This document shows, one piece after another, positions 6,544 to 59,867 of a stretch of 64,000 bases of DNA. Source of the stretch: Candidatus Giovannonibacteria bacterium (GTDB taxonomy: Bacteria; Patescibacteriota; Minisyncoccia; JACPKW01; UBA11713); the NCBI GenBank assembly GCA_016186825.1, contig JACPKW010000004.1:64428-128427 (forward strand), given 5' to 3'. Under the pieces are notes generated by a model. It did no database searches. It was not told the origin of the DNA and saw only the letters and a program-made list of their open reading frames with translations. A program made the position numbers and the translations under genes. Every line of letters begins with the position of its first letter. Within the stretch, counting starts at the first letter, position 1.

Positions 6544-6557
6544 TATGATATATCATA
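6544..6557. promoter_or_regulatory. 14 bp perfect palindrome TATGATATATCATA overlapping regulator start codon (candidate operator)
   Basis: Self-complementary; same core recurs at 7031-7044 and 26561-26574. Confidence 0.5.
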
Positions 6558-7017: not shown

Positions 7018-7053
7018 TTAATGGCTAGTATGATATATCATACTAGCCATTAA
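7018..7053. repeat. 36 bp perfect palindrome TTAATGGCTAGTATGATATATCATACTAGCCATTAA
   Basis: Exact reverse-complement symmetry; shares core TATGATATATCATA; lies between regulator gene and gyrB. Confidence 0.9.
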
Positions 7054-11176: not shown

Positions 11177-11182
11177 TTTTTT

Positions 11183-11746: not shown

Positions 11747-11810
11747 TAGTTTATACACTTCCGAAAATAGTAATTTTTATTTACGATAAAGTTCCTATGA
11801 GGAACTTTTT

Positions 11811-12449: not shown

Positions 12450-12471
12450 TTTTAAAAAGGAGGGGAGTGAA

Positions 12472-13116
12472 ATGGTCGATTATAGACACTGGAAACTGAT
12501 TCAGTGGCAGCGAGAGCTCGGGTTCAAACGAAATGGGGCAAAAAGGCGCTGGACGAGATCTGATTATCTGCTACACGTTGTTTCAAACCTCGGGAGTATT
12601 TGCGAGACTTTAAGAAAGCAAGAACGGCATGAGACGATCGATTTATTACCGGAGCTTTTCATAAGCCTTCTTGTTTTCGCAAACGTTTCGAAAATAAATC
12701 TGCAAGAAGCGGCATGGCGCAAATATCCGGGAGTTTGCCCGAGTTGCCTCGAACGGCAGGACTGCAACTGTATTCGACGCGAGAAGGTAATTCGAACAGA
12801 CGCAGATCTTGACCCATACCGTCAATCTCGCCGCCTTATGCCCGAAACGCTTGATGATTGGCAGCTGATGTCATCGAAAATTTTTGGAAAACAAAACCAG
12901 GTCCAATGGCGGGAAAAAATTTGGTATCACTTCGAAGAGGAGGTCGGCGAAATTGCAAAAGCCTTGCTCTTTCAAGGGCCGCGCGAACTTTCAGATGAGC
13001 TCGCCGATGCTTTTGCGTGGTACGTCGCTTTCTCTAACAGAATGGCCGTCAGTATCACAAACTTGCTCGTCGCAAAATTTTTTTCGCACAGCTACTCGCT
13101 TGCGAAAATTGCGTAA
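12472..13116 (+). CDS. MazG-like nucleoside triphosphate pyrophosphohydrolase with internal Cys-rich (CPSC...CNC) insert
   Basis: EEEVGEIAKAL and ELADAFAWYVAF match the MazG EExxE/ExxD metal-binding helices. Confidence 0.5.
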   Translation: MVDYRHWKLIQWQRELGFKRNGAKRRWTRSDYLLHVVSNLGSICETLRKQERHETIDLLPELFISLLVFANVSKINLQEAAWRKYPGVCPSCLERQDCNCIRREKVIRTDADLDPYRQSRRLMPETLDDWQLMSSKIFGKQNQVQWREKIWYHFEEEVGEIAKALLFQGPRELSDELADAFAWYVAFSNRMAVSITNLLVAKFFSHSYSLAKIA

Positions 13117-13220
13117 TGGGCGTTTTTATGGGTCTTGCTGCATCGAATGCGGCAGGACCCTTGTTTTTTTATTGAGCGGTTGCTAGCTTTAAGAAAATTC
13201 TGAAACGGAGGAAATAGTTC

Positions 13221-14912
13221 ATGAACAATTCAAGATATCAGCCGGATTTCCGTCCGGATGAATGGTCTGATGAAGATAGGCGGCTTTTATATCCTTTTGT
13301 GACAAACCTCGACGGGCTCGTCACGGTGTTACGAAATATGCCCCCGGAAATGGTGGGTGCGCTCTGTTCGAGAGCAAGCCGGGCAAACGGGTATTTGCTT
13401 CGAGTTTTGCTCGACGAATATCTTTACCCAGTGTTGCGGGGCGAAAACAAAGCTGAAGCAGCGGAGCTCGAAGCCGTGATCGATTTTTATCACAAACATG
13501 GCGTAACGTCGGCGCTTAACAGTGACCGTGCCCGAAAGTTTTATGCAAGAAATCACGCAGGGTATGGTGACGAGTCGGTGGCGCAGATGACGGGGACGCA
13601 TTTCGTCCTGTGGGGAGTTTCGCAAGTTGCGATGAAGCTACTTGAAGATTCCCGTATCGGCGCGGCTCCGCAGGAAAAATCAACCAGAATGGTTGACTTT
13701 ACAAAGAAGGTTCAGGGCAAGTACTTGTATTACACCGACCCGGATATTGTTCAAGCGAGACTCGGGGACGAATACAAGCTCGTCAATGATCGTCTTTTCG
13801 CGAGGAACGCCGAAATGGTAGATCTGCTTAAGGACAGGTTCGCGAAAAAGTTTCCGGACGTGCCGAAGTCGGTGATCGAAAAAAAGGCATTCGATACGGC
13901 GCGCGGTTTTTTGCCGATGTCCACGCTTGGACAGGTTGCTTTTGATGTAAATGGCCAGGCGGCGGAATACATGATTAACAAGTATCGAAAGCACGGCCTC
14001 GGCGAAATGCGTTGGATAACCGAGGCTCTCGAGAGAGAGCTTGATTGCGAAATCCCGTCTCTGCTTTACCGACTCAAAGAAACTGATCCGGGCCGTCTCC
14101 AGAAACTTGAGGATTATCAGATGTATCTCGCGACGAGAATATCGCGGATTGAGCCATTGGCGCGTGAACTTTTCGATAAATATCAGCTCCCTTGGCGCGG
14201 TCGGCCGACTTCAACGGTCAAGCTCGTCGATAATGATGTTTACGGGGAAGTGAACATTATCGCTGGGATTCTTTTCCCCGCGAGTGAGCAGTCGCTCCAA
14301 AATCTTATTGTGGCTGTTCGCTCCATGACTCCGGAGGAGCGGTGCCGGATTCTTCTGAAATACGTTGAAGGCAGGACCGAGCGCTGGCAGAAAGTCGGAA
14401 GGGCTTTTGAAAACGCCTTCGTAACCTACGAGATTTTGGTAAACGGGGGCGCTTACCGCGATATCCACCGCCATCGTCTACTTACTCAAGAACGCCAGTA
14501 TTTTACTACACAGTTGGGATATGACGTGCCTGTCGAAATTGCCGAGCTTAGGCTTGCTGAGCTGGTCCATCAAGCCATGGAGTGGATGGAAACGCTTTGG
14601 CAAAAAGTTGCAAACGAGCTGGACCGGGAGCATGCTCAATACTGCTCGACTCTCTTCCATCGCGTGCGATTTTACCAAAAAGAAAACCTGCGCGAAGCTT
14701 TCTGGGAAATAGAACTTCGGACAAAACCGGACGGTCACCCGGATTATCGAAAGATTGAGCAGGAAAAATATCGCCTGCTCAAGGAAGCTTATCCGGGAAT
14801 CGCAAAGTTCATGCTGGCGGACTTAAACGAGTATGACTTCGCGAGACGCGGCATGGAGGAGCGCGCTGCAGGGAAGATCGAAAGGCTTGAAAAGCTCCTT
14901 GGAAAGAAGTGA
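13221..14912 (+). CDS. ThyX-like (flavin-dependent thymidylate synthase family) protein, long 563 aa form, divergent
   Basis: N-terminal PEMVGALCSRASRAN and C-terminal half with RDIHRHRLLTQERQYFT resemble the ThyX fold and RHR motif, but the canonical Ser of RHRx7S is not evident; operon context dcd-tmk-mazG. Confidence 0.4.
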   Translation: MNNSRYQPDFRPDEWSDEDRRLLYPFVTNLDGLVTVLRNMPPEMVGALCSRASRANGYLLRVLLDEYLYPVLRGENKAEAAELEAVIDFYHKHGVTSALNSDRARKFYARNHAGYGDESVAQMTGTHFVLWGVSQVAMKLLEDSRIGAAPQEKSTRMVDFTKKVQGKYLYYTDPDIVQARLGDEYKLVNDRLFARNAEMVDLLKDRFAKKFPDVPKSVIEKKAFDTARGFLPMSTLGQVAFDVNGQAAEYMINKYRKHGLGEMRWITEALERELDCEIPSLLYRLKETDPGRLQKLEDYQMYLATRISRIEPLARELFDKYQLPWRGRPTSTVKLVDNDVYGEVNIIAGILFPASEQSLQNLIVAVRSMTPEERCRILLKYVEGRTERWQKVGRAFENAFVTYEILVNGGAYRDIHRHRLLTQERQYFTTQLGYDVPVEIAELRLAELVHQAMEWMETLWQKVANELDREHAQYCSTLFHRVRFYQKENLREAFWEIELRTKPDGHPDYRKIEQEKYRLLKEAYPGIAKFMLADLNEYDFARRGMEERAAGKIERLEKLLGKK

Positions 14913-15001
14913 GGATTTTTGGAAAAAGGGCTGGACTCAACATCCAGCTCTTTTTAATTCATCAATCAATCTTTTTCCCTCATTTTTATCGTTTTTAAGA
15001 T

Positions 15002-15037
15002 GGCCTCATCTTTACGCTATAGCGTAAAGATGAGGCC
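15002..15037. repeat. 36 bp perfect palindrome GGCCTCATCTTTACGCTATAGCGTAAAGATGAGGCC
   Basis: Exact self-complementarity between ThyX-like gene and secD; no U-tract on either side. Confidence 0.9.
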
Positions 15038-17757: not shown

Positions 17758-20973
<3,216 letters not shown>

Positions 20974-21035: not shown

Positions 21036-24000
21036 ATGGAAACAAAAGTTACAGATTTCAAATCAATTTTAATCAAACTCGCTTCGCCCGAGCGGATTTT
21101 GGCGTGGTCCCGAGGCGAAGTTACAAAACCGGAAACAATTAACTACAGGACCCAGCGCGCCGAAAAAGACGGTCTTTTTGACGAACGCATTTTCGGGCCC
21201 GAACACGATTATGAGTGCTACTGCGGAAAGTATCGGCGCATCCGCTACAAAGGAATCGTTTGCGATAAATGTGGCGTGGAAGTTACGCGCTCGATCGTGC
21301 GCCGCGAACGAATGGGGCATATCAAGCTCGCGACTCCAGTTTCACATATTTGGTTTTTGCGCGGAGTGCCTTCGAAACTCGGATTGATTCTCGACCTTTC
21401 GATTCCGGAACTCGAGCGCGTAATTTATTTTGCGGGCTACATTATCACAAAAGTAAACGACAAAGCCCGCGAAGAAGCTGTGCGGGATCTCGAGCATGAA
21501 TATAAAACTAAAACAAAAAATGCCGATCTTAAAAAAGACAAAGCCGGCCTTAAAGATGCTTATGATGCGGCGAGAAAAGAACTTGAACAGATAAAACTGG
21601 GACGGGTTATTACTGAAGTCGAATATCACCGCCTTGCTATGCGCTATGCGGAAGTTTTTGAAGCGGGAATAGGCGCGGAAGCTCTCTACAAAATTTGCAA
21701 AGAAGTGAACTTGAACGAACTTCACTCGGCGCTCGAAAAAGAATACGAAGACGCGAGCCCCCAGCAAAAGAAAAAATTAGTTAAGCGCTTGAGCCTCATA
21801 AAATCCATGGTGCGCTCGGGTGTGCGTCCGGAATGGATGTTTTTGGCCGTTATTCCGGTTTCTCCGCCGGCGCTCCGTCCGATGGTACAGCTCGAAGGAG
21901 GCAGGCATGCGACTTCTGATGTAAACGATTTATACAGGCGCGTGATCAACCGCAACAATCGTCTGAAAAAACTTTTGGAGCTTCGCGCGCCCGAAGTAAT
22001 CGTCCGCAATGAAAAAAGAATGCTTCAGGAAGCTGTTGACGCTTTGATTGATAACTCGATCCGGCGCGGGGCGGGAGTCGCAACCTCACAGGCCCAAAAG
22101 CGGCCGTTGCGCTCGCTTGCCGATATGCTCAAAGGAAAGCAGGGGAGATTTCGCCAAAATCTTTTGGGCAAACGCGTGGATTATTCCGGCCGCTCCGTTA
22201 TCGTCGTCGGCCCTGAACTTAAACTGCATCAATGCGGACTTCCCAAGCAAATGGCTTTGGAACTTTTCCGCCCGTTCGTAATTAACCGCTTGATTGACGG
22301 CGGGCTTGCGCATAACATTCGAGGCGCAAACCGTTTGATTGACGAAGCGACTCCGGATGTCTGGTCCGCGCTTGAAGAAGTTATTAAAAATAAATTCGTA
22401 TTGCTGAACCGCGCTCCCACTTTGCACCGCTTGGGCATTCAGGCTTTTCAGCCGGTATTGATCGAAGGCGATGCAATCCAGATTCATCCGCTCGTATGCG
22501 CGGCTTTCAACGCGGATTTTGACGGCGACCAGATGGCGGTGCACGTTCCTTTGACAGACGAAGCGCAATGGGAAGCGCGCGAAATCATGGCCGCGTCAAA
22601 AAATCTTTTGAAGCCCGGGACGGGCGATCCGACCGTAACGCCTTCGCAGGACATGGTTATCGGTTGCTACTGGCTTACAAAAATTGTTCCAGGCCTCAAA
22701 GGCGAAGGAAAAATTTTTGCAACTCCGAACGAAGCGATTCTCGCATATGAATTTGGTGATGTGCATCTGAAAGCGCAAGTGAAAGTTCGCGCGACTAAAA
22801 CTGCAAAGTATAAGCGTTTTGACGGGGGGATTATTGAAACTTCTGTCGGGCGGCTTTTATTCAATTCCGTTTTGCCCAATGACTTTGAATTTTTGAACGA
22901 AGAGATGAGGAAAAAAACGCTCGAGAAAATTGTCTCAAAACTGATAGTAAATTATGGTGTCTCTGAAGTCGGGCCCATTCTCGACAAAATAAAATCGTTT
23001 GGCTACCGCTACGCGACTCTTTCCGGAATCAGCTGGGGGATGGACGACGTGATTGTCCCCCCGATCAAAGCGGAAATTATTGAAGCCGCGCTGAAAGAAG
23101 CCGAGAAAGTTAAGGAGCAGTATAACGAAGGCCTGCTCACTGAAGATGAACGTTATGATAAAGTTATTTCAATCTGGGCGGATGTTAAAAGAAAAGTTGA
23201 TGAATGGGTGCCTAAAGTTCTTGATGAATACGGACCGGTCCACTCAATGGTTTCTTCCGCCGCGCGCGGCACTTGGACGCAGATTACGCAGATGTCTGGA
23301 ATGAAAGGTCTTGTCCGAAACCCAGCCGGAAAAACAATCGAGCTTCCAATTATTTCTTCATACAAGGAAGGCTTGAACGTGCTCGAATACTTTATTTCAA
23401 CTCACGGCGCAAGAAAAGGAACTGCAGACACCGCCTTGAAAACAGCGCACGCGGGCTATCTCACGCGCCGCCTCGTTGATGTTGCGCAGGATCTGATTAT
23501 CCGCGATGAAGACTGCAAAACTTCAGACGGATTTAAAGTTTGGAGAAAAGATGTCGAAGAATACGGCAAAGGACTTGCGGCAAGAATTTTCGGGCGCGTG
23601 CTTGCGGAAGATGTTAAAGATGCTGACGGAAAAATGCTTTATAAAAAAGGAGCGCTTCTCTCCGTTGATGATGCTGAAAAAATTGATAAGGCGGGCGTGC
23701 AAGAACTGATTGTCCGCTCGCCGATCACGTGTAAAACGCTTCGCGGAATTTGCCAGACTTGCTACGGCTATGATCTCGGATCGAACGCTCCCGTGAAAAT
23801 GGGGGAGGCGGTTGGGATTGTTGCAGCGCAGGCGATCGGGGAGCCGGGCACGCAATTAACAATGCGCACGTTCCACGTCGGCGGAGTTGCGGGAGCTTCT
23901 GACATTACGCTCGGTCTGCCGCGCGTTGAAGAAATTTTTGAATTGCGGATTCCGAAGTCGATTGCTGTGCTTTCCGATGTTGCGGGAGTAGTGATGGAAA

Positions 24001-24686
24001 TTGAGGAAAACGGAAAAGAAAAAATTGTAAAAATTTTGGTGGATCGTGAAAAAGGAAAAAAGGCGGCGAAAGAAGCTGACGAAACACGCGAGTTTGCCGT
24101 TCCTTACGGACGCGCCTTGTTTGTCTCAAAAGGAAGCCATGTTGAGTCAGGCGATGCATTGACTGACGGGCCTGCTGATATCAAAACTTTATTCTCGCTT
24201 GCGGGGCGCATTACTGCTCAAAATTACATTATCCGTGAAGTTGCCCGAATTTATAATTTACAGGGCGCTTCAATCAATGACAAACACATCGAAGTTATCG
24301 TTCGGCAAATGTTCGGGCGCGTTAAAATCAAAACTCCGGGCGCGACGCGATTTGCGATTGGAGATGTTTTGGAAACCGCGGAGTTCATCGAAGAAAATAT
24401 GCGGATGAAAGAAAAAGGTGCGGAAGTTGCGGAAGGATCTCCGCTTGTGATGGGAATTACAAAAACTGCGCTTTCAACCTCGAGCTTTCTCTCGGCGGCG
24501 TCATTTCAGGAAACGACTCGCGTTTTGATTACGGCCGCGCTTGATGGAAGAGAAGACAGATTAAACGGCCTTAAAGAAAATGTCATCATTGGGCGCTTGA
24601 TCCCCGCGGGAACGGGGTATAGAAAAGATTTTCCGGTTGAAGAATTTGAAGATGCGCAAAGGGAAGTGGAAGAGGCGATGGAATAA
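21036..24686 (+). CDS. rpoC: DNA-directed RNA polymerase subunit beta'
   Basis: 1216 aa, Zn-finger CxxC..CxxC at N-term, NADFDGD catalytic motif. Confidence 0.97.
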   Translation: METKVTDFKSILIKLASPERILAWSRGEVTKPETINYRTQRAEKDGLFDERIFGPEHDYECYCGKYRRIRYKGIVCDKCGVEVTRSIVRRERMGHIKLATPVSHIWFLRGVPSKLGLILDLSIPELERVIYFAGYIITKVNDKAREEAVRDLEHEYKTKTKNADLKKDKAGLKDAYDAARKELEQIKLGRVITEVEYHRLAMRYAEVFEAGIGAEALYKICKEVNLNELHSALEKEYEDASPQQKKKLVKRLSLIKSMVRSGVRPEWMFLAVIPVSPPALRPMVQLEGGRHATSDVNDLYRRVINRNNRLKKLLELRAPEVIVRNEKRMLQEAVDALIDNSIRRGAGVATSQAQKRPLRSLADMLKGKQGRFRQNLLGKRVDYSGRSVIVVGPELKLHQCGLPKQMALELFRPFVINRLIDGGLAHNIRGANRLIDEATPDVWSALEEVIKNKFVLLNRAPTLHRLGIQAFQPVLIEGDAIQIHPLVCAAFNADFDGDQMAVHVPLTDEAQWEAREIMAASKNLLKPGTGDPTVTPSQDMVIGCYWLTKIVPGLKGEGKIFATPNEAILAYEFGDVHLKAQVKVRATKTAKYKRFDGGIIETSVGRLLFNSVLPNDFEFLNEEMRKKTLEKIVSKLIVNYGVSEVGPILDKIKSFGYRYATLSGISWGMDDVIVPPIKAEIIEAALKEAEKVKEQYNEGLLTEDERYDKVISIWADVKRKVDEWVPKVLDEYGPVHSMVSSAARGTWTQITQMSGMKGLVRNPAGKTIELPIISSYKEGLNVLEYFISTHGARKGTADTALKTAHAGYLTRRLVDVAQDLIIRDEDCKTSDGFKVWRKDVEEYGKGLAARIFGRVLAEDVKDADGKMLYKKGALLSVDDAEKIDKAGVQELIVRSPITCKTLRGICQTCYGYDLGSNAPVKMGEAVGIVAAQAIGEPGTQLTMRTFHVGGVAGASDITLGLPRVEEIFELRIPKSIAVLSDVAGVVMEIEENGKEKIVKILVDREKGKKAAKEADETREFAVPYGRALFVSKGSHVESGDALTDGPADIKTLFSLAGRITAQNYIIREVARIYNLQGASINDKHIEVIVRQMFGRVKIKTPGATRFAIGDVLETAEFIEENMRMKEKGAEVAEGSPLVMGITKTALSTSSFLSAASFQETTRVLITAALDGREDRLNGLKENVIIGRLIPAGTGYRKDFPVEEFEDAQREVEEAME

Positions 24687-24713
24687 ATTGCGATCCAAGA
24701 TATTCAATAGATT

Positions 24714-24758
24714 CACTACTTCATATATTCACGATCGTGCACATATGAAGTAGTGAGA
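24714..24758 (+). terminator. hairpin after rpoC (TCACTACTTCATAT...ATATGAAGTAGTGA)
   Basis: 14 bp inverted repeat with 16 nt loop directly after rpoC stop; weak U-tract. Confidence 0.45.
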
Positions 24759-24854
24759 AGAAGAAGAAGTCATAGCTAGGTCTTAAAGTGGAATCCCAAA
24801 AAGCCTTTAAATATGGGCTTTTTTGGTGTTTAAAGCCTAGTTAGTTTTTAGGAC

Positions 24855-24883
24855 TTGACATTGGAAGCCGCAGGTGCTATAAT
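24855..24883 (+). promoter_or_regulatory. consensus sigma70 promoter TTGACA-17nt-TGcTATAAT
   Basis: Perfect -35 and -10 hexamers with 17 nt spacer and extended -10 TG. Confidence 0.6.
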
Positions 24884-24889
24884 GCTCCA

Positions 24890-25044
24890 ATAATAAGGAA
24901 TTAAGGCAATTTGAAAACTTTATAGCCCGCCTACGCTAAAGCTACGGCGGACGAAGAGAGAGCGGATCGCAAACACCGTATAGTTTGCAAAAAGGCGATT
25001 TCGCAATCTCTTAATAATGAAGAAAGTGCGAAATCGCCTTTTTT
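24890..25044 (+). ncRNA. candidate ~155 nt small RNA (promoter-to-terminator unit, unknown family)
   Basis: Starts about 7 nt after consensus -10; ends in a perfect 17 bp stem AAAAAGGCGATTTCGCA/TGCGAAATCGCCTTTTT plus T6; no ORF with SD inside. Confidence 0.4.
24989..25044. terminator. bidirectional intrinsic terminator
   Basis: 17 bp perfect stem, 21 nt loop, A-run 5' and T-run 3'. Confidence 0.75.
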
Positions 25045-25108
25045 CATAGTCGAGACGGGAGGAAGATCAAAAATAATTTATAAAGCGAAAAAAGAAAGGA
25101 GGTGATAG

Positions 25109-25264
25109 TGTGTGTCCAAAATGTGGTGGCCTGAATTGCCCTCGATGCGGGAAGTGTCCCGCGGAAGGGGCGGAAAAATGTTTGCGGTGCGGCCAAGACC
25201 TCCGGCCGAAGCCAGTTCCGGAGGCAGAAGTCAGAACGGACGAAATCCATTTCGATTTCTCTGA
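25109..25264 (+). CDS. small ORF (51 aa, GTG start) behind perfect SD, Cys-containing N-terminus CPKCGGLNCP
   Basis: AAAGGAGGTGAT 7 nt upstream of GTG; low-complexity Arg/Gly/Pro-rich remainder; could be non-coding. Confidence 0.2.
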   Translation, partial: CVSKMWWPELPSMREVSRGRGGKMFAVRPRPPAEASSGGRSQNGRNPFRFL

Positions 25265-25569
25265 AGAGTTCGAGTAAATTTCACCGGTCGCGGACGTGAG
25301 GTCGGTGCATCGAAAGATGCAAAGTCTCGGGGTGCTCTCGAGACACGCGTAAAAACAAGCAGAAGGCACTGCTTGCCGAAAAGTTCCGAGGTGCGCTTGG
25401 AACATGCCATATGGGGAGCTTGGAAATATCCAAAAGCTCCCCGCCAAATTTGAGATCTTACTTGGTTAAAAAAAACTGATCGAGCTCTCAAAATTGGTTC
25501 TTCGAAAAAGTTTTTCCTCCGATTTTGTGCGCTGGAGCTCGGCGCATAAAAAATAAAAGGAGGAGAAAA

Positions 25570-25767
25570 ATGGAAAAGATAAAAGTGTTGGGGCGATTGC
25601 CCCTAGAAAAAGTTGGGCGGCGGTTTTTCCCGCTGTCCCAGCCGGTGCCTGCGCACATTTGTGCGCATAATATTGGTCGCGACGCGTACCGCAAATGCGG
25701 GGCGTCGCTAAAAAAAGATGGAGCTTGCCCAAACTCGCGGTTTCACCGCGAGCAAAAGGCAGTCTAA
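25570..25767 (+). CDS. small protein (65 aa) with 4 Cys, strong SD
   Basis: AAAAGGAGGAGAAAAATG; HIC...KCGASLKKDGAC pattern suggests possible metal-binding ribbon. Confidence 0.35.
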   Translation: MEKIKVLGRLPLEKVGRRFFPLSQPVPAHICAHNIGRDAYRKCGASLKKDGACPNSRFHREQKAV

Positions 25768-25818
25768 CCCGCACGCGATGTTATATCGTCGTGCGGCGGA
25801 TTGAAAGGAGGTGAACCA

Positions 25819-25827
25819 ATGTTGTAA
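25819..25827 (+). CDS. 2-codon mini-ORF (ATG TTG TAA) behind perfect SD, followed by two hairpins
   Basis: GAAAGGAGGTGAACCA ATG TTG TAA; hairpins CAAACTCG-AAAA-CGAGTTTG and GGGCAGA...TCTGCCC directly downstream. Confidence 0.25.
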   Translation: ML

Positions 25828-25976
25828 ATATTCAAACTCGAAAACGAGTTTGAGGGCGTGGGCAGAGCCAGATAATCTGCCCCTCAACTAAGTTTTTATC
25901 CCTAGTCTAAGGATTACAATTGGGATGAAAACTTTGAGAGAAAGTTCTTAAAAAAAATAAGAAAGGAGGTGATGAT

Positions 25977-26189
25977 GTGGCGTGGTTCCGATTTTTTTTC
26001 GGAACTCCCCGGAGGTTTCTAACGACACTGGCCTTCGTCGGGCTTGTGTCCGTTATGATATCTCCCGGGTTGCTTCGCACCGCGGTAGAAAGACTGCTTG
26101 CGGAGTTAAATCCGCTGTTGGGGCCGGCGCTGACGATCATGATCGTCTTTGCTGGAATCCGTCTGATCCTTTTCGGTCGGCGGAGATAA
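25977..26189 (+). CDS. small two-TM membrane protein (70 aa, GTG start)
   Basis: GGAGG 7 nt upstream of GTG; two hydrophobic helices (FLTTLAFVGLVSVMISPGLL, LLGPALTIMIVFAGIRLILFG). Confidence 0.35.
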   Translation: MAWFRFFFGTPRRFLTTLAFVGLVSVMISPGLLRTAVERLLAELNPLLGPALTIMIVFAGIRLILFGRRR

Positions 26190-26381
26190 CCCAAGGGGAC
26201 GTCAGCTGGAGACGACTTGTCCAGCTACTCGGATCGCGCCTAGCCGAGGAAAAATAAACGCGATTAACCCAAGGCAACAGCTCAATAACGGGCAAAGCTT
26301 GAATGATAAGTCCTTGGTTCTCCCGCGAAGGCGAGGAGGTAAAAAATAAATCAAGCTTTCGGTTGATTTTAACCGGAGCTT

Positions 26382-26504
26382 TGATCAAAGTTTCTGATCG
26401 TTGAATTAAAAACACTTCGATATATATGTAGTGAGCTCGCCGAACTATCGAAGTAAATACTATGATGCATCATAGTATTAAAATTCGAATGGAAATTTTG
26501 ATGA
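26382..26504. repeat. ~125 bp direct repeat, copy 1 (contains 24 bp palindrome AATACTATGATGCATCATAGTATT)
   Basis: Near-identical to 28439-28568 except a 7 nt internal insertion in copy 2. Confidence 0.85.
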
Positions 26505-26557
26505 AAGCTCTTTAATACTTTCAGATTTTACTAAATTGAAAAATACGGATTTGTTAT

Positions 26558-26575
26558 CGCTATGATATATCATAG
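26558..26575. promoter_or_regulatory. 18 bp palindrome GCTATGATATATCATAGC (same core as 6544 and 7031 sites)
   Basis: Exact self-complementarity; core TATGATATATCATA. Confidence 0.6.
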
Positions 26576-26813
26576 CAATTTGAAAAAAAGAAATTGAGAA
26601 AAAGAAAGCTGGGAAGAATTATGGAGATTTTGAGAGAGATTAAATCCAGGCATTAAATTTATTGGCCTTGGCGGGCAGGGACGGGATCGGATCGGGAAAG
26701 CAGTGCGAGAGTTCGCTAACTGGTGAATTCGAAAACTTTGAGAGGTAAAACAACATCCCAACAAACTGGAGTTTATGAGGATGAGGAAAAGTTCTTTAAT
26801 AAAATTAAGATGC

Positions 26814-27077
26814 TCATCTGTAAATGTCTTTTCGGTGAGCTACACGGAGGAGCTGGATTGTTTTAGGATTAATGAACTGAAAAATAACTCGCCAGTCGCG
26901 AGTTATTCGAAAAGAATAAAGCCCTGAAAGTTTTCCAACCAGTGCTTTTGTGTGCAGTTGTGGATGAAAAACATTTTTTTCCAGAATTTCTGTGAGCTTC
27001 GAAAGTTTTTCTTGTTGATTTCGAGGAAGTCGCGCGGCGCTATCAAGAAATTTTTCAGTGAAAAGTATTCTTATCAT
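26814..27077 (-). CDS. type II toxin, RelE/ParE superfamily (87 aa)
   Basis: C-terminal LSGLYSFRITRDWRVIFQFINPKTIQLLRVAHRKDIY resembles RelE/ParE/YoeB-fold toxins; start overlaps upstream small gene (ATGA). Confidence 0.6.
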   Translation of the reverse strand: MIRILFTEKFLDSAARLPRNQQEKLSKLTEILEKNVFHPQLHTKALVGKLSGLYSFRITRDWRVIFQFINPKTIQLLRVAHRKDIYR

Positions 27078-27298
27078 GAACGCCGACGGCGCAATTCTCC
27101 TAGAAAGGCCTTTCTGCCCTTGAACTTATGCGCTGGTTTTTCTTTGCTTGCTTTGAGCATTTCCTCGACGAATTCAGGCTGGTATTCTCCTTCGGAATCC
27201 TTTCCTGCGATGCCAATCACGAAAGAACGCAGCCGTCTTACTTCCGCTTTGAGGTTTTCCATTTCTTTTGGATAGGCTATGGCCCTGTTCACTTTCAT
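27074..27298 (-). CDS. putative cognate antitoxin (74 aa)
   Basis: Small acidic/basic protein immediately upstream and translationally coupled to toxin gene. Confidence 0.45.
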   Translation of the reverse strand: MKVNRAIAYPKEMENLKAEVRRLRSFVIGIAGKDSEGEYQPEFVEEMLKASKEKPAHKFKGRKAFLGELRRRRS

Positions 27299-27531
27299 AT
27301 TTTAGTATGACGAGATTGATGCGGTCAATGTTTCTTTAAAACCTGTCCTCGGATGTGTATCCGGGCTGATGAGTCGAAAACGACGAAACAGGAAAAAGTT
27401 CTTTTTCAAATAAATTTCTAGCTGCTGTTTTCCTTCGACAAGCTCAGGATAAGTCGTTCTGAATTTGGAATGAAAACGGCAGCCGGAATTCACGAGATCT
27501 GGCTGACTAAAATTTATTGGAGGAAAAGGAA

Positions 27532-27735
27532 ATGGATTTTAGAAAATTCGTGGACACGATGGGTGGAGATGCAGTTCGGAGTCTGGGAAGGGTACCTGAC
27601 TCCACTGAGTCTAGGGAGATGCTAAAACTCAAGGCTGAAGAAGCCTTGGGTAAGAAACTTTCTGGTTACAGGTTTACCGGCAGCATCCTGCGGAGTGAAA
27701 ATCCGCAGGGCTTTGTCGGGATAGTGGCCTGGTAA
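27532..27735 (+). CDS. hypothetical small protein (67 aa from second Met)
   Basis: GGAGGA 8 nt upstream of ATG at 27532; no motif recognised. Confidence 0.3.
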   Translation: MDFRKFVDTMGGDAVRSLGRVPDSTESREMLKLKAEEALGKKLSGYRFTGSILRSENPQGFVGIVAW

Positions 27736-28090
27736 ATAACCTTTGCGGCGGAGGAAATGCAGAATATCGCATTTCCTCCGCCAGCTTCAATTAAGTTTTT
27801 GTCCTGCGTGAAATTGAAGGACGAAAACTTTGAGAGGTTATAATATCATCCTAACAAACTCAAGTTTATAAGGATAAAAAAAGTTCTTTACAAAATGTTT
27901 CTGGCTGTGGTTTTGGTGGCTTTCCCATAATAATATTATTTTGATGGGTTTAAATTAGCCGCCAAAATCGCAGCCGGAAATCTGAAATACATTCGGCTAG
28001 CTTTTCGGAGAGGAAAAAACAAAAAAGGTCAAAGCAGAGGACGAAATTGATTTTTTTGGCTTTATCCCAAAGAAAGGGGGGGGTGGCTTT

Positions 28091-28384
28091 ATGACGTTTG
28101 TGGGCTTGATCGGAGCGGTGTGGGTGCTGCAAATTCCTCTCGGTCTCTTTCTGGTGGGGGTTGCGTTGGTGGGGAGGTTTGAGAGGAAACACCCCACTTG
28201 GGAAGAGCTCTGCCGGGCGAAAGCGGAGGAAAATTTTGCGCGGGAGCGCAAAATTTTGAAGCACGTCGAGCGGTGCTTGACGTGCTCGGAGAGCGAAATA
28301 GGCAGGCATATTAAAGCGAGCCGCGATTTTTTCCAGCGCTGGCTCGCGGCGGACGGAAAACTTCCGCCGGAAGAATGGAGGTGA
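28091..28384 (+). CDS. hypothetical membrane-anchored protein (97 aa)
   Basis: GGGGGG/GGTGG SD-like tract upstream; N-terminal TM helix then charged cytoplasmic domain with CLTC. Confidence 0.35.
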   Translation: MTFVGLIGAVWVLQIPLGLFLVGVALVGRFERKHPTWEELCRAKAEENFARERKILKHVERCLTCSESEIGRHIKASRDFFQRWLAADGKLPPEEWR

Positions 28385-28438
28385 GACCGAATGAAAAAAA
28401 TCAGGCCTTGGCGCGGATATAATCTGCACCAAGGCCCC

Positions 28439-28568
28439 TGATCAAAGTTTCTGATCGTTGAACTAAAAACACTTCGATATTCGATATATATGTAGTGAGC
28501 TCGCCGAACTATCGAAGTAAATACTATGATGCATCATAGTATTAAAATTCGAATGGAAATTTTGATGA
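28439..28568. repeat. ~125 bp direct repeat, copy 2
   Basis: Matches 26382-26504; contains the same 24 bp palindrome at about 28518-28541. Confidence 0.85.
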
Positions 28569-28606
28569 GGGGTTCGTTAAAAAAACTTTTTAGAGGAGGA
28601 CATATT

Positions 28607-28717
28607 ATGAAGTATTTTTTTATGTTTTTGTTGATGGCGGTCTTATTGACCGCCCCGAGCTGTGGGATCGAGAAAGGGGGAGATGATGGGGGTGAGGATG
28701 CCCCCATCGAAACATAA
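28607..28717 (+). CDS. small secreted/lipoprotein-like peptide (36 aa)
   Basis: GAGGAGGA SD; MKYFFMFLLMAVLLTAPSC signal peptide with lipobox-like APSC, acidic Gly-rich tail. Confidence 0.3.
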   Translation: MKYFFMFLLMAVLLTAPSCGIEKGGDDGGEDAPIET

Positions 28718-28949
28718 AAACGAGAGGTGGGTCGACGAAAAATCGGCTCACCTTCTCAAAAATTCAAGTCGCTATGGAGCCGTGGAGTTAGTTTGTAACA
28801 TTCAAAAGATGAAACTCTCTCTTTGTCTTTTGTTCGAACTAGCTCACGGCTCTATGGCGATTTTTTGTTTTTTTCTTAGTTCTGTGGTCTAGAAACATTT
28901 GTGGATAATAAAATAGCTATGCGGTCAAATTGAATCTACACTTAGAGCA

Positions 28950-31433
28950 ATGAAAATTAGACCTGCCATATTGGTTTTATTGCTTATATTTCTTTTTTCG
29001 TTAATAAATTTCCGCGAAAGCGATGCGGAAATTGTGCCAGAAGCTCCGAGGGTTTATCTGCAGACGAACTATAATCTTCCAAAAGGTAAAACCATTAATG
29101 TCCAAGCTGGCGGGGATTTGCAGTCGGCTTTGAATTCAGCCCTGCCGGGGGATGTTATTATTCTTCAAGCGGGCGCAACTTTTACGGGAAATTTTTTGCT
29201 CCCGAACAAATCCGGACCGGACTGGATTTACATTCAGTCTTCCGGACTTAACAATCTTCCGGAAGGAAAACGCGTGAACCCGACGCAGGCGAATTACATG
29301 GCAAAAATAGTCACTTCAAATACTGCGTCTGCCGTTTCCGCCTCATCCGGCGCCCATCATTACAGATTTTCCGGAATTGAAATTACGACTACTTGGGCGA
29401 GCACGAACGCGACAATGTATAATCTTGTTTCGCTCGATTCCGGATCCGATATTGTTTTCGATCGCGCCTACATTCATGGCACGCCTGGCGGAAATGTGCG
29501 CCGCGGGATTGCCCTCAACAACGCGCGGACTGCCGTGATCGATTCTTATTTTTCCGATTTTCACGAAGTTGGGATGGAAGCGCAAACCATTATGGGGTGG
29601 AGCGGCCAGGGTCCCTATAAAATAGTAAACAATTATTTAGAAGCGGCGGGTGAAAATTTGATGTTTGGCGGACAGGACCCTTGGATTTCTAATTTGGTTC
29701 CCGCGGACATAGAAATCCGCGGAAATTATTTTTATAAACCCATGAAATGGAAAATTGGAGATTCAAGTTATGCGGGAACTCACTGGACCGTGAAAAATAT
29801 TCTCGAATTAAAAAACGCCGAGCGCGTTTTGATTTCCGGAAATATTTTTGAAAACAACTGGCCAGACGCGCAAAATGGTTTTTCAATTTTACTCACGCCG
29901 CGAAACCAGAATGGCACCGCGCCCTGGTCGAAAGTGCGCGATGTTAATTTTTCCCATAATATTCTGAAAAACATTTACGCGGGAATAAATATTATGGGCC
30001 GGGACGATAATAATCCCAGCGGACAAACGGAACGGATCGCAATAAAAAGTAATATCTTTTCCGGAGTTTCAGGAACGCTTTTTCAGATTTTAGACGGACC
30101 TCGCGATGTTTCAATCGAGCATAATACGGGAATGCAAAGCGGAAATATTTTGCTCGCATCGGGAAGCGAGGCGGCCGGTTTTGTTTTCAAAGATAATATC
30201 GCGAATCATAATCAGTACGGCGTGATCGGAACCGGAATGGGAATTGGAAATCCGACTATCAGCCGGTATTTTCCGGGAAGCGTATTTATAAAAAATGCTC
30301 TGATTGGCGGAAGCGCCGGAAGTTATCCCGCAGAAAATTATTTCCCGTCGAATTCTGCCGCGATCGGCTTTGCCGACATGCCGAACGGGAATTACGCTCT
30401 TTTGAATTCGAGCACTTATAAATATATGGGATCGGACGGAAAAGACATTGGCGCGGATGCAAGCGAGGTAAATTCAAATACCCAGTGCATAATTTCCGGG
30501 TATTGTCCGACCATGACAGCCATTTTGGTTTCGAGTCCGGCCGCGCTTTCTTCTGATCCTTTGCCTTCTTCTCAGGCGAGCGCGGCTCTGCCACTGGCAA
30601 CGCAGACAACGTCGAGCTTTGTCCCTTCAGCTGCCTCTGTCGAAGGAATTACTTGGCGGGGCGCTTCGAATGTTTCAGCAAGTTCGGATTCAATTAAGAA
30701 AACTTCGGGATGCGATGGATGCCCTGATGCCGGAGCTTTTTCTGAAAATTCTCTTTCGGGTGATGGATATCTTGAATTTAAAGCGAGTGAAACAAATACA
30801 AATCGTCAGATAGGCCTCTCAAACGGAGATACCGATTTTTCAGGAAACGACATAGATTTTTCCTTTCAAATGCATCCGATTGTCTCGAATTATAATCTCG
30901 AGGTTCGCGAAAACGGCGAATATCGCGCAAACACTTCTTACAAAACAGGGGACTTATTAAAAATTTCAGTTGAAGCTGGAACGGTCAAGTATTACAAAAA
31001 TGGATCGCTTTTATACGGGAGCGCTAATAAGGCGCTGTTCCCGCTCATAATAGATACCTCCATCCTGAATTTGGGCGGAACGCTCGATAAAATTGTCTTG
31101 TCTAAAAGCGCGTTTGCTTCAAGCAAGCCCGCGGCTCCAAAGCCAGCGGCAGTTGAGTCCGGAGGGACAATTCAGCCGCCCGCAACCTCTGCGCGGCAAT
31201 TAATTTTGCCGGTGAAGCCCGCCGCTTTTTTTAAGATAGGTGACAGAGTTTACACCATGGCTTATCTCCGTGTCCGAAGAACCCCCTACGGCTTTACCAT
31301 CGGAATTCAAAAAATTAATTCGTATGGAAAAATTTTGGCCGGGCCTTCGGCTGTCGGAGGTTTGAAATGGTGGAAAGTTGATTATGATAAAGGCGTGGAC
31401 GGATGGTCTGCGGAGAAATGGCTTAAAAAATAG
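28950..31433 (+). CDS. secreted right-handed beta-helix repeat protein with lectin-like middle region and C-terminal SH3b-like domain
   Basis: Signal peptide; repeated N-x-x-G / NNIxxN beta-helix-like segments; C-terminal GDRVYTMAYLRVRRTPYG...GWSAEKWLKK resembles bacterial SH3. Confidence 0.5.
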   Translation: MKIRPAILVLLLIFLFSLINFRESDAEIVPEAPRVYLQTNYNLPKGKTINVQAGGDLQSALNSALPGDVIILQAGATFTGNFLLPNKSGPDWIYIQSSGLNNLPEGKRVNPTQANYMAKIVTSNTASAVSASSGAHHYRFSGIEITTTWASTNATMYNLVSLDSGSDIVFDRAYIHGTPGGNVRRGIALNNARTAVIDSYFSDFHEVGMEAQTIMGWSGQGPYKIVNNYLEAAGENLMFGGQDPWISNLVPADIEIRGNYFYKPMKWKIGDSSYAGTHWTVKNILELKNAERVLISGNIFENNWPDAQNGFSILLTPRNQNGTAPWSKVRDVNFSHNILKNIYAGINIMGRDDNNPSGQTERIAIKSNIFSGVSGTLFQILDGPRDVSIEHNTGMQSGNILLASGSEAAGFVFKDNIANHNQYGVIGTGMGIGNPTISRYFPGSVFIKNALIGGSAGSYPAENYFPSNSAAIGFADMPNGNYALLNSSTYKYMGSDGKDIGADASEVNSNTQCIISGYCPTMTAILVSSPAALSSDPLPSSQASAALPLATQTTSSFVPSAASVEGITWRGASNVSASSDSIKKTSGCDGCPDAGAFSENSLSGDGYLEFKASETNTNRQIGLSNGDTDFSGNDIDFSFQMHPIVSNYNLEVRENGEYRANTSYKTGDLLKISVEAGTVKYYKNGSLLYGSANKALFPLIIDTSILNLGGTLDKIVLSKSAFASSKPAAPKPAAVESGGTIQPPATSARQLILPVKPAAFFKIGDRVYTMAYLRVRRTPYGFTIGIQKINSYGKILAGPSAVGGLKWWKVDYDKGVDGWSAEKWLKK

Positions 31434-40516: not shown

Positions 40517-40576
40517 TTGGCTAAAACTTTTTTTGTGACGGTTGACCGTCCTTGATCGTTGTAATAAGGTATTTCT

Positions 40577-40807
40577 ATGGCGAAGACAAAAAAACAATTC
40601 ACCGCCATTTATAAAAAAGCCGGGGGATGGTATTTGGGATGGATTGAAGAAATTCCCGGAGTCAACAGCCAAGGCAAAACGCTTCGAGAAGTTAAAAATA
40701 ATCTCAAAGAGGCCTTAACGCTTATAATTGAAACAAATAAAGCGCTTTTGTCCAAAGATGAGCCTTCCGGCAAAAGAATTCGAGAAGTGCTCTCGGTTTC
40801 TGTTTAA
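40577..40807 (+). CDS. hicB: HicB-family antitoxin (UPF0150)
   Basis: GWYLGWIEEIPGVNSQGKTLREVKNNLKEALTLIIE matches HicB N-terminal fold. Confidence 0.6.
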   Translation: MAKTKKQFTAIYKKAGGWYLGWIEEIPGVNSQGKTLREVKNNLKEALTLIIETNKALLSKDEPSGKRIREVLSVSV

Positions 40808-40815
40808 TTTGTTTT

Positions 40816-41013
40816 TTGATGAGGCGCGCTGACTTAATCCGTCATTTAGTAAAAGAGGGTTGTATTTTTGTTCGCGAAGGGGGTAGTCATAGCGTATTTT
40901 TTAATCCAGCAACTAGGCGTTCATCAACTGTACCGCGGCATAATGAAATTCATTACTTTTTGGCTCGAAAAATTTGCCGTGACTTGGGGATAAGAGAGCT
41001 TAGAAAAAAATAA
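40816..41013 (+). CDS. hicA: HicA-family mRNA interferase toxin
   Basis: LVKEGCIFVREGGSHSVFFNP...TVPRH with the GSH signature of HicA/YcfA. Confidence 0.75.
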   Translation: MMRRADLIRHLVKEGCIFVREGGSHSVFFNPATRRSSTVPRHNEIHYFLARKICRDLGIRELRKK

Positions 41014-41095
41014 TCTCATGCAGTTACCTTTTTGCGCTAATTGTCTCATAACATTAATACAAGAAAACTTCGAACGGAAATTTTATCTATTATCA

Positions 41096-41141
41096 GACGC
41101 CCGAGCGATCCAGGCTGCTCCTCCCTCGAAGACGACAATGA
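41096..41141. repeat. 46 bp direct repeat (copy 2)
   Basis: Identical to 40446-40491; in the host-gene frame this copy continues ...DDNEKF-stop. Confidence 0.85.
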
Positions 41142-41162
41142 AAAATTTTAAGAAGAAGAGGT

Positions 41163-42788
41163 TTAATCAATTCTTTCTAGACAGTAAACCTCGTTTGCAT
41201 CCGTAGAGACAAAATATCTTTTTGTGTTTTCATTATAAACTACTTTTTGAGTAATTTTTTCAGTGACCTGGAAAACTCTTGTTGCTTTTCCAGTTTCCGG
41301 ATTGAATTCATATAAAGTTCCTCCATTAGAGCCCACATAAACATTTCCATCAATAATATTTGGGGTTGCTATAATTCTGCCACTCGTTGCAAACTGCCAT
41401 TTCATTTCTCCGGTTCTTAAATCAAAACAGTAAATATTTTTGTCTGTGGATGTAAAATAAACTTTGCTGTCTCTTACAACCGGACTCGAATAAATAATAT
41501 CTTCTGTTTTAAATTTTCCAATAACGTTTCCCGTATCAAGATCCAATGCATATTCGTTTTTATCAAATGAACCAAAGAGGAGAAGATTTGTTTCAATGTC
41601 GAATGCAAGGGAAGCTTTTATTTCGCCTCCTGTTTCATATTTCCAAAGAAGTGTTCCATTTTTCGCATTGAATAAATAAACTGTATTATCATTTCCTCCG
41701 ATCGCAACAATTTGTTTTTCTTTGCAATAAGCCGGTGAGCAGTGCACATATTCCGGCACTTTATAATCCCAAATTTTTTCTCCGGTATCCATCTTCAAAG
41801 CGGCGATTCCTCCCTTTCTTTTGAAAAGTCCAAACTCTAGTCCTATGAATACCAAATTTAAATCTGGCGCAAGAGCGGGCGATGAACCGATCCAGTCTGC
41901 TTCAGAATATTTCCAAATAATCTTTCCGTCTTTCGCATTCTGGCAGTAAAAATTACCATCGTAAGAGCCGAAATATATCATTTTTTTATTTATTGCAGGT
42001 GAAGAAAAGATACTTTTACCCATTGAAGGATAGCCAACTTTATATTTCCAAGCCACCGAACCGTCATTTTGATTTATGGCCCATAAAAATCCGTTATCAC
42101 TTCCGAAATAAATTTTTTCATTGTCCATGCACGGTGTTGATTTCGGTACAACGTGAAAAAGATTTGCATCAGGGGCCTGAAATTTCCACATAATTTTGAA
42201 TCTTTCTTGGGGAGTAAATCTTTTTTTAGGACTCATTGAAAGCCCGAAGTCTTTTAACGAGAAAAGATAGGTCAAATTAATATTTCTTTTTTTAATAAAA
42301 TCGAAATCATCATTTCCGCTGAAATTCATTATTGGAAAGATGCGGGAAACAATTTTTCCCGTTTCTTCTATAATCCGGATTTGACGCAGAAAAGTTGATC
42401 CGCTATTTATTATATCGTCAACTAAAATAATCGGCGTGTTATCCAATTCTCCTTCAATCAATTTTTGGAGTCCTATGCTTTTGCGAGCTTTTCTGATCAT
42501 AAAACCGTTTACTGGTTTGCCGATCTGATGGGAACGAAGAACAATGGCTCCAATTAACGGCACGGCGGCTAATTCTTGGCCTCCGACTTGAAATGGATAT
42601 TCTTTTTCAAATTTTTCCCAAAAAATATCAACGATTAAATCAAGCGCCTCGGGCTTTAAAAAAATATTTCTTAAATCAAACAGCCAATTTTCTCGTTCAC
42701 CAGTTGGAGAAATGATTATATGGGTTTTTGAAGTGGGAAGAGCGTCCCTTTTAATAATATTTTTAAGCTTTTCTAATTTTTGTTCCAC
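41163..42788 (-). CDS. fusion protein: orotate-PRTase-like (type I phosphoribosyltransferase) N-domain + 8-bladed PQQ/BamB-like beta-propeller
   Basis: GKPVNGFMIRKARKSIG...PIILVDDIINSGST matches PyrE motifs; C-terminal repeated YFGSxDGxLxAxxxxDGxxxWKY blades; start overlaps SagB-like gene stop. Confidence 0.6.
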   Translation of the reverse strand: MEQKLEKLKNIIKRDALPTSKTHIIISPTGERENWLFDLRNIFLKPEALDLIVDIFWEKFEKEYPFQVGGQELAAVPLIGAIVLRSHQIGKPVNGFMIRKARKSIGLQKLIEGELDNTPIILVDDIINSGSTFLRQIRIIEETGKIVSRIFPIMNFSGNDDFDFIKKRNINLTYLFSLKDFGLSMSPKKRFTPQERFKIMWKFQAPDANLFHVVPKSTPCMDNEKIYFGSDNGFLWAINQNDGSVAWKYKVGYPSMGKSIFSSPAINKKMIYFGSYDGNFYCQNAKDGKIIWKYSEADWIGSSPALAPDLNLVFIGLEFGLFKRKGGIAALKMDTGEKIWDYKVPEYVHCSPAYCKEKQIVAIGGNDNTVYLFNAKNGTLLWKYETGGEIKASLAFDIETNLLLFGSFDKNEYALDLDTGNVIGKFKTEDIIYSSPVVRDSKVYFTSTDKNIYCFDLRTGEMKWQFATSGRIIATPNIIDGNVYVGSNGGTLYEFNPETGKATRVFQVTEKITQKVVYNENTKRYFVSTDANEVYCLERID

Positions 42789-42789
42789 T

Positions 42790-59850: not shown

Positions 59851-59867
59851 TTTTCTAAGATTTAAAT

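Follow-up and report, generated by a model that had tools for sequence, protein, structure and literature searches.

Bacterial hammerhead ribozymes, whose function is unknown, often flank small, non-conserved open reading frames (ORFs), in many cases close to phage genes (PMC6155905, PMC3088659, PMC6765202). We analysed a 64-kb stretch of Candidatus Giovannonibacteria DNA (the window, that is, the stretch at its full length of 64,000 nt) and found a type III hammerhead motif in positions 24687-28949, the interval between rpoC and the gene of an 827-aa secreted protein. The interval resembles the small-ORF loci, often in prophage-like DNA, described for hammerhead and twister ribozymes (Perreault et al., 2011, PMC3088659; Weinberg, 2015): a canonical intergenic hammerhead lies by small orphan ORFs, the genes are accessory and variable, and processing of a polycistronic transcript is predicted. 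It differs in having one recognisable ribozyme and no integrase or phage gene nearby, in its host, which belongs to the Candidate Phyla Radiation (CPR)/Patescibacteria, and in that a non-ribozyme element, here called the U-element, takes the hammerhead position in a paralogous cassette. On these features it would fit a known class, the bacterial ribozyme-associated clusters of small, non-conserved ORFs, which are functionally unexplained. We consider that 24687-28949 is probably a horizontally acquired, cassette-like, strain-specific accessory island in a core-gene hotspot between rpoC and ftsK, with transcripts punctuated by structured RNA elements, one of them a canonical hammerhead. What hammerhead and twister ribozymes do in bacteria is not yet understood. 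We found no published report of hammerheads in CPR/Patescibacteria, and the locus adds an example from this group. Its context is unusually explicit, the ribozyme lying divergent from the promoter of a RelE/ParE toxin-antitoxin (TA) pair and heading a leader that has a differently headed paralogue.

The hammerhead was detected with the Rfam model RF00008 (Hammerhead_3; match 27340-27394) in E-value mode, with 39.9 bits and E = 2.4e-6 for 4.4 kb searched. Its sequence reads CCUGUC/CUCGGAU-GUGU-AUCCGGG-CUGAUGA-GUCG-AAAA-CGAC-GAA-ACAGG, where the slash marks the predicted cut between C27347 and C27348, after the cleavage triplet GUC. Stem III (CCUGU/ACAGG, 5 bp) is open, stem I has 7 bp and a GUGU loop, and stem II (GUCG/CGAC, 4 bp) has an AAAA loop. 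The core is complete (C3-A9, G12-A14, A15.1-U16.1 and C17), with CUGAUGA at 27366-27372, GAA at 27385-27387, a pair formed by A27388 and U27346, and position 17 taken by C27347; the core-adjacent pairs C1.1-G2.1, G10.1-C11.1 and A15.1-U16.1 are intact. The minimum free energy (MFE) fold of the segment is a three-way junction, and every feature by which PMC3088659 accepts a hammerhead was found in it. A looser descriptor of our own matched once in the real window and once in 300 dinucleotide-shuffled windows (~0.003 per window). A scan of all loci with this descriptor gave one further match, on contig L017, which we judged spurious. Judged from its sequence, the feature at 27342-27392 is a canonical type III hammerhead ribozyme motif. 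It lies 140 nt upstream of an orphan 67-aa ORF. The most informative feature, it went unmentioned in the preliminary description of this DNA, which was made from the letters alone. That description had proposed a covariance-model search; this returned the hammerhead in E-value mode and no other ribozyme or riboswitch family. In gathering mode, Rfam gave only two tRNAs in the whole window; on sub-regions at E <= 10, the matches beyond the hammerhead were of the generic miRNA-hairpin kind, and the three closest relatives gave no Rfam match. An rRNA, tRNA or tmRNA identity for the island was ruled out by Rfam and tRNA scans.

Synteny across eight related genomes indicated that the order secD-secF-rpoB-rpoC-ftsK-recA is conserved in this lineage. 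The C-terminal 399 aa of RpoC were 68-69% identical to those of three Candidatus Giovannonibacteria metagenome-assembled genomes (MAGs) and 57-60% identical to those of Ryanbacteria-like and other Parcubacteria. Between rpoC and ftsK, four Ryanbacteria-like genomes have ~45 nt, and three Giovannonibacteria genomes have 1.4-1.9 kb with small genes unrelated to one another and to the window; here the spacing is 6.8 kb (the 4.26 kb island plus the 827-aa gene). The island itself, 4263 nt from rpoC to the 827-aa gene, is the largest gap of the window, the runners-up having 901 and 646 nt. Among the relatives' junction genes are an excisionase-type HTH_17 gene (contig L006, 6285-6470) and a NUDIX gene (L007, 11880-12617), and this content supports repeated independent insertion at the site. 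By this comparison, the junction of rpoC and ftsK in Giovannonibacteria is a true hotspot of variable accessory genes. It resembles other genomic-island hotspots between core genes in that the same junction holds different accessory DNA in each relative, and differs from them in lacking a recombinase, a tRNA or a recognisable att site. The 827-aa gene is likewise missing from the relatives' junction, so it is part of the same variable insert as the island. The absence of rpsL-rpsG-fusA-tuf after rpoC had been taken as an oddity; since rpoC followed by ftsK is the norm of the lineage, it is no sign of disruption. The comparison of gene order that had been suggested thus showed ftsK, not rpsL, as the usual next gene, with an insert that differs or is missing from genome to genome.

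The island can be read as a + strand array in which the unit would be a structured RNA element, then AAAGTTCTTT, then often a long hairpin, and then a small ORF of 36-97 aa. It has two blocks: module 1 (about 24.85-26.38 kb), with a promoter, a ~155-nt RNA and three small ORFs led by perfect Shine-Dalgarno (SD) sites, and module 2 (26.38-28.57 kb), a 2.06 kb unit bracketed by direct repeats and holding an inverted TA operon, the hammerhead and two orphan ORFs. The repeated stem-loop element of the preliminary description was recovered as the 75-nt part of the U-elements, whose copies at 26730-26803 and 27822-27895 are 83% identical (E = 2e-12). A search of the window found AAAGTTCTTT in the island only, at 26788, 27395 and 27880, with a variant at 25946; it follows a U-element or else the hammerhead. 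A role of the motif as sigma-70 promoter element was rejected, its spacing to a -10 site being inconsistent. The two long hairpins, LH1 and LH2, have AAAAAGTTCTTT and their stems in common, each in the order motif (27393 and 27878), long hairpin, ORF. LH2 reached an MFE of -46.5 kcal/mol (z = -8.75) and is 17.7 kcal/mol stabler on the + than on the - strand. Because the hammerhead and U-element e both precede these homologous hairpins and an ORF, they are, on this alignment, in equivalent positions of paralogous leaders. The U-elements matched no Rfam family, and a scan of a single metagenome for their pattern gave three matches, all due to chance.

These features suggest how the island might be expressed. 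Transcripts of the + strand would traverse the whole array, and the hammerhead would cleave itself between C27347 and C27348, splitting an upstream RNA antisense to the TA genes from a downstream mRNA with LH1 and the 67-aa ORF. At its 5' end, the downstream mRNA would then be highly structured and carry a free hydroxyl (5'-OH). The U-elements, LH1, LH2 and the direct repeats may act as further signals for processing, stability or termination, and the TA module may aid retention of the island.

Several points weigh against this reading. The ORFs of the 64-kb window that were scanned with Pfam include no integrase, transposase or phage hallmark gene, and no tRNA target is present, so no route of acquisition is shown; we still regard horizontal acquisition as most likely. 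The hammerhead score lies below the Rfam gathering score of 48.5, so that a default scan misses it. Its tetraloops, GUGU and AAAA, are small and have no obvious loop-loop contact or pairing, and fast cleavage at physiological Mg2+ is therefore uncertain. No + strand promoter was recognised directly upstream of it, and it is a single ribozyme, whereas described loci often have several flanking genes. In module 1, the codon signal of the small ORFs is not coding-like, and NCBI annotates none of them. The preference of G·U pairs for the + strand could come from the positive GC skew of the region alone. Covariation support for the structures besides the hammerhead is minimal, the repeat families having two to three copies and no relatives. 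The earlier suggestion of a mobile or regulatory island rather than decayed genes stands in part: synteny, the orphan ORFs, foreign-looking signals and the TA pair argue for accessory DNA and not for decay, while, with no mobility gene, tRNA target or phage hallmark, 'mobile' stays an inference and 'regulatory' a conjecture.

Table 1. Features of the island and of the gene that follows it, in order of position in the window
Feature	Position	Strand	Remarks
Palindrome, 22-nt arms, 91% complementary	24713-24756	+	directly after rpoC stop codon
Intrinsic-terminator-like hairpin and T run	24798-24830	+	likely rpoBC terminator
Consensus sigma-70 promoter, TTGACA, 17 nt, TG-TATAAT	24855-24883	+	12/12 matches, TG extension
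~155-nt candidate small RNA (sRNA) or leader	24890-25046	+	MFE -48.3 kcal/mol, z = -4.1; no Rfam family
Perfect SD (25095-25105) and 55-aa Cys-rich zinc-ribbon-like ORF (GTG 25110-25277)	25095-25277	+
~8 GC-rich hairpins	25278-25560	+	MFE -110 kcal/mol, z = -6.5; mostly stabler on +
SD AAAGGAGGAGA (25556) and 65-aa ORF (25570-25767), conserved Cys/His	25556-25767	+
Perfect SD and 2-codon mini-ORF (ATG TTG TAA, 25819-25827)	25804-25827	+
U-element copy b: hairpin YUCAA...AAGUUUUU-RUCC..GGAY-GAAAACUUUGAGAG, then AAAGTTCTTA	25884-25955	+	z = -3.5
Perfect SD and 70-aa hydrophobic ORF (GTG 25977-26189)	25962-26189	+	codon score -0.023
Direct repeat copy 1 (core 26382-26504), 24-nt perfect palindrome AATACTATGATGCATCATAGTATT inside	26376-26510	+
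Palindrome GCTATGATATATCATAGC	26559-26576		core TATGATNNATCATA
U-element copy c (75-nt repeat), AAAGTTCTTT at end	26730-26803	+
RelE/ParE-family type II toxin, 87 aa	26814-27077	-	MBI2609884.1; so named by NCBI
DUF2683 putative antitoxin, 74 aa from 27298 (NCBI: 62-aa version)	27074-27298	-
Promoter-like site for TA operon, short inverted repeat	27328-27299	-
Type III hammerhead ribozyme motif	27342-27392	+	Rfam RF00008 (Hammerhead_3 match 27340-27394)
AAAAAGTTCTTT motif and long hairpin LH1 (27412-27488)	27393-27492	+	z = -5.0
Orphan 67-aa ORF, GGAGG SD	27532-27735	+	HYW53_01790 = 72-aa version; codon score +0.112
Perfect 14-bp GC-rich terminator-like hairpin	27747-27782	+
U-element copy e: upstream hairpin and 75-nt repeat, AAAGTTCTTT at end	27783-27895	+	z = -3.4
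Long hairpin LH2, 25-bp stem with G·U pairs, LH1 homologue	27897-27981	+
Orphan 97-aa ORF, N-terminal transmembrane (TM) segment	28091-28384	+	HYW53_01795; codon score +0.110
Direct repeat copy 2 (core 28439-28568), TTCGATA tandem duplication	28433-28574	+	z = -6.6
36-aa lipoprotein-like ORF (signal peptide and Cys)	28607-28717	+	codon score +0.130; no NCBI annotation
~42-bp hairpin, then T tract	28765-28880	+	-53.2 kcal/mol (+) vs -31.2 (-)
827-aa secreted beta-helix-type protein	28950-31433	+	HYW53_01800; Pfam: no match

The island has foreign-looking translation signals. The window's three perfect AAAGGAGGTGA sites (25095, 25804 and 25962) all fall in it, within 900 nt. The preliminary description had counted four, the fourth of which, at 25556, is AAAGGAGGAGA; of the lengths given for the ORFs that they lead (51, 65, 2 and 70 codons), the last three held and the first ORF has 55 codons from GTG 25110. 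At the gene starts of the window, an SD of at least 5 nt precedes only ~4 of 46 host genes, a sign that initiation here may be SD-independent or leaderless; against this background the perfect SDs of the island stand out. A codon score was trained on the long genes of the window, where true coding chunks gave 0.185±0.08 and false frames -0.24±0.13. The perfect-SD ORFs of module 1 had intermediate scores (-0.10 to -0.02), and the ORFs of module 2 were host-like (0.09-0.13). Because the perfect SDs are confined to the island, and from these codon data, at least module 1 looks imported.

Module 1 begins with the consensus-promoter sRNA unit of the preliminary description, which we found again at the same place: a promoter with all 12 sigma-70 consensus positions and a candidate RNA of ~155 nt ended by a terminator, a 17-bp A-tract/U-tract hairpin at 24986-25046. 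Pairing of this RNA in trans with AAAGUUCUUU through its GAAAACUUU was also considered, and was unconvincing with just ~6 A/U-rich pairs. Automatic annotation leaves the 2.1 kb after rpoC blank, up to the toxin gene, despite the strongest translation and transcription signals of the window. The 55-aa ORF, which NCBI does not annotate, matched Pfam Zn_ribbon_3 below the cut-off (E = 2.6e-4) and has an atypical codon score (-0.098). The GC-rich, hairpin-dense segment described after it was borne out, with ~8 hairpins and z = -6.5. For the 65-aa ORF we found a single homologue (P0124, 62 aa, 47% identity, E = 7e-7) among 1.8e9 representatives, with C31, C43, C53 and H59 invariant between the two. 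A 219-aa protein (P0127) was rejected as a longer variant: its DNA is identical, and the gene call seems to read through a TGA.

The sole homologue is encoded on a 3237-nt contig (L042; Logan SRR22388048) that is unannotated and has no viral match. This contig has two tandem consensus promoters (~330-470), long hairpins (574-729 and 1149-1212), strong SDs, a 355-aa protein without a family, small TM ORFs and two copies of GAGAG..AGTTCTTTGA, and it may be a second locus of the island's type. The U-elements sit in the same cassette slot as the hammerhead, 5' of the AAAAAGTTCTTT-long-hairpin leader, and on this ground they could be processing RNAs. That they form a new class of self-cleaving or processing RNA, and the island an undescribed RNA-punctuated gene-cassette system of CPR bacteria of which L042 is a second example, is a long shot.

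In module 2, the RelE/ParE toxin-antitoxin pair of the preliminary description was confirmed. The toxin domain scored above the cut-offs of PF05016 (31.6 bits; cut-off 23) and TIGR02385 (39 bits; cut-off 27.9) and matched phrog_1213 (5.5e-16); the DUF2683 gene lies 5' of the toxin gene in the same predicted operon and overlaps its start by 4 nt. Like other RelE/ParE type II modules, the pair thus has a toxin above the cut-offs, a small overlapping partner upstream and a promoter-like site of its own. It differs in the partner, a DUF2683 protein that is a putative antitoxin, and in the hammerhead, which is encoded divergently on the opposite strand, 44 nt from the annotated start of the antitoxin gene. 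Among 5.8e9 proteins, the 67-aa and 97-aa ORFs had no match but themselves. The end of the 97-aa ORF holds an SD-like AATGGAGGTGA, and after it comes a 16-codon mini-ORF (MKKIRPWRGYNLHQGP) extending through a hairpin at 28405-28438 (whole segment 28392-28442). The hairpin at 28765-28880 is, by its modelled fold, a strong terminator that closes the island before the 827-aa gene.

Searches for mobile DNA gave little beyond the TA genes. Island DNA showed no similarity to phage and plasmid collections, and PADLOC gave no match. PHROGs and NCBIfam matched the TA genes only, apart from one marginal PHROGs match of the 827-aa protein to a family of unknown function (E = 0.0084). Among the features expected of a prophage or integrative element, direct repeats do flank module 2. 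Scans of viral contigs for the U-element, for the hammerhead with its motif, for the 355-aa protein and the GAGAG..AGTTCTTTGA of L042, and for the 65-aa family gave no hits or chance hits in coding sequence.

The island sequence is real, because independent Logan assemblies from many samples reproduced it at 100% identity, with breaks inside repeats only. Three independent assemblies of the same population (L004, at 4410-4462, L046 and L047) carry 53 extra nt between 25087 and 25088 (TCTTCCCTCCATCTCGGTTAAAATTTGAAAGTTCTTTTGTTTGAAGGAAAATA), which the window lacks; the segment completes a 15-bp hairpin and supplies a further AAAGTTCTTT motif. The difference is either population microheterogeneity or a small assembly deletion in the MAG.

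The palindromes noted before are present, and the density of structure signals is far above chance. We calculated MFE z-scores against shuffled sequence in 100-nt windows; the mean was -1.99 in the island and -0.21 elsewhere in the window, with z < -3 in 31% of the island's 100-nt windows versus 3% elsewhere (Mann-Whitney p ~1e-15). Structure was biased to the + strand, where the summed MFE was -655 kcal/mol (-556 kcal/mol on -) and the majority of G·U pairs lay. The interval had been called low-coding, with no ORF longer than 100 aa. Four such ORFs exist mechanically (126, 102 and 160 aa on -, 107 aa on +), and they have non-coding-like codon scores and overlap better candidates. The interval is gene-poor as claimed, and it is not empty, as small ORFs that have an SD or are plausible on other grounds take up ~39% of it.

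The two direct repeats of ~125 bp in the preliminary description correspond to cores of 123 nt (26382-26504) and 130 nt (28439-28568), which are 94% identical and differ by one 7-nt tandem duplication. They fold as closed multi-branch structures whose closing stems run into non-repeated flanks; these flanks differ and yet are complementary in each copy (GAGCTT/AAGCTC in copy 1, GGCCCC/GGGGTT in copy 2). Compared with a miniature inverted-repeat transposable element, their termini TGATCAAAGTTTC and GAAATTTTGATGA are inverted at 11 of 13 positions, the flanks are complementary without a target site duplication, and both of the two copies lie in the island.

These repeats raise the possibility that a small circle or plasmid-like element gave rise to module 2 (26382-28568) by recombining within a shared structured site of ~125 nt, the repeats being attL/attR-like and the TA pair an addiction module; the rest of the island would then be earlier insertions at the same hotspot. 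The near-identical repeats bracket exactly one unit of 2.06 kb, which assembles as its own contig of 2035 nt in at least nine samples, and if one unit were taken out, a single repeat would remain just 5' of the 36-aa ORF. Mobile DNA typically has TA modules, and an excisionase-type HTH gene occurs at the same junction in relatives. Contig breaks at repeats are, however, expected at k = 31 and are no proof of excision; neither the unit nor the rest of the window holds a recombinase or replication gene, no tRNA is present, and the U-elements and AAAGTTCTTT, which occur both in and outside the unit, point to a common origin with module 1. We consider the circular-element origin unlikely. Like the three explanations that follow, it is weaker than the accessory-island reading.

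Very unlikely is decayed coding DNA, with pseudogene remnants, leftover start signals and chance ORFs. Long non-coding stretches, the weak coding statistics of the unannotated ORFs of module 1, and the 53-nt indel, if taken as ongoing erosion, would agree with decay. The relatives were checked for intact homologous genes in the same interval, and neither these nor remnants of the relatives' genes were found: when 29 related loci, among them all regions downstream of rpoC, were compared with the island by tblastx and blastn, nothing matched (tblastx E < 0.01), which argues against decay of ancestral genes. The non-coding parts are moreover extremely structured and repeated in register, with an intact ribozyme motif; the 65-aa ORF retains the Cys and His residues common to its homologue, and the TA genes are intact.

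A highly improbable explanation is an integron-like cassette array without an integrase, resembling a cluster of attC sites lacking integron integrases (CALIN), in which the direct repeats and U-elements would be attC-type recombination sites between promoterless small ORFs and an inverted TA cassette. As in sedentary chromosomal integrons and CALINs, the content is strain-specific, small co-oriented ORFs alternate with structured separators (imperfect palindromes of ~60-130 nt), and the type II TA pair is inverted; the direct repeats fold into long closed stems branched at the tip, with covariation in the closing stems. The island differs from those arrays in having no IntI-type tyrosine recombinase among the Pfam-scanned ORFs of the window, and by inspection the RYYYAAC...GTTRRRY arrangement (the R''/R' consensus of attC) is absent from direct repeats and U-elements on either strand. 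The attC reading of the repeats was rejected: only a GTTGAAY/ATTCGAA pair was found, in the wrong order, and the polarity of the U-elements is RRRRAAC...GTTYYYY. The separators are also heterogeneous in architecture, and their G·U-dependent stability suits RNA, not folded single-stranded DNA.

The palindrome core TATGATNNATCATA occurs five times in the window, against 0.12 expected: at 26461-26474, 26561-26574 and 28525-28538 in the island (both direct repeats and the separate palindrome), and at 6544-6557 and 7029-7042, bracketing a TrpR-like gene (~6560-6973; Trp-repressor-family HTH, probable true start ATG 6560). It was not found in ~480 kb of the relatives' loci. The palindrome (TATGATATATCATA) may be an operator of the TrpR-like regulator or a genome-specific palindromic repeat. 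These sites, with the consensus promoter and the discrete candidate RNA of ~155 nt, would fit a host regulatory RNA hub, made up of sRNAs and leaders, for the 827-aa surface protein, ftsK or recA with TrpR-like operators, a scarcely credible reading given that the very strong terminator at 28765-28880 insulates the 827-aa gene, that no Rfam cis-regulatory family matched, and that island and 827-aa gene are missing where relatives keep ftsK and recA, so that a conserved regulatory role is impossible.

A Pfam scan of the window placed rpoB at 17758-20973 and rpoC at 21036-24686 (MBI2609883.1; locus tags here in the range HYW53_017xx-018xx). The 827-aa gene is followed by ftsK, a Glucodextran_B-like gene, recA and a DUF192 gene, and on the rpoB side, 5', lie secD/secF, thyX, tmk, dcd, rplK, nusG and gyrB. 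In this lineage the classical ribosomal and RNA polymerase operons are rearranged: rplK is followed by dcd, tmk and a thyX-domain gene (10751-14912) instead of rplA-rplJ-rplL, and secD/secF stand directly 5' of rpoB. Very stable perfect hairpins of 12-17 bp, with z down to -9, were also found elsewhere in the window (7018-7053, 14928-14955, 15002-15037, 59865-59901 and 346-377). They are intergenic, following the TrpR-like gene and thyX and preceding pyrG and the tRNAs, and are probably terminators.

On the - strand at 41163-45005, genes for a YcaO cyclodehydratase, a nitroreductase (SagB-like dehydrogenase) and a PQQ-type beta-propeller protein lie next to one another. They look like an azoline-type cluster for a ribosomally synthesized and post-translationally modified peptide (RiPP) in a CPR genome, and the 646-nt gap at 40517-41162 might be the site of a RiPP precursor peptide.

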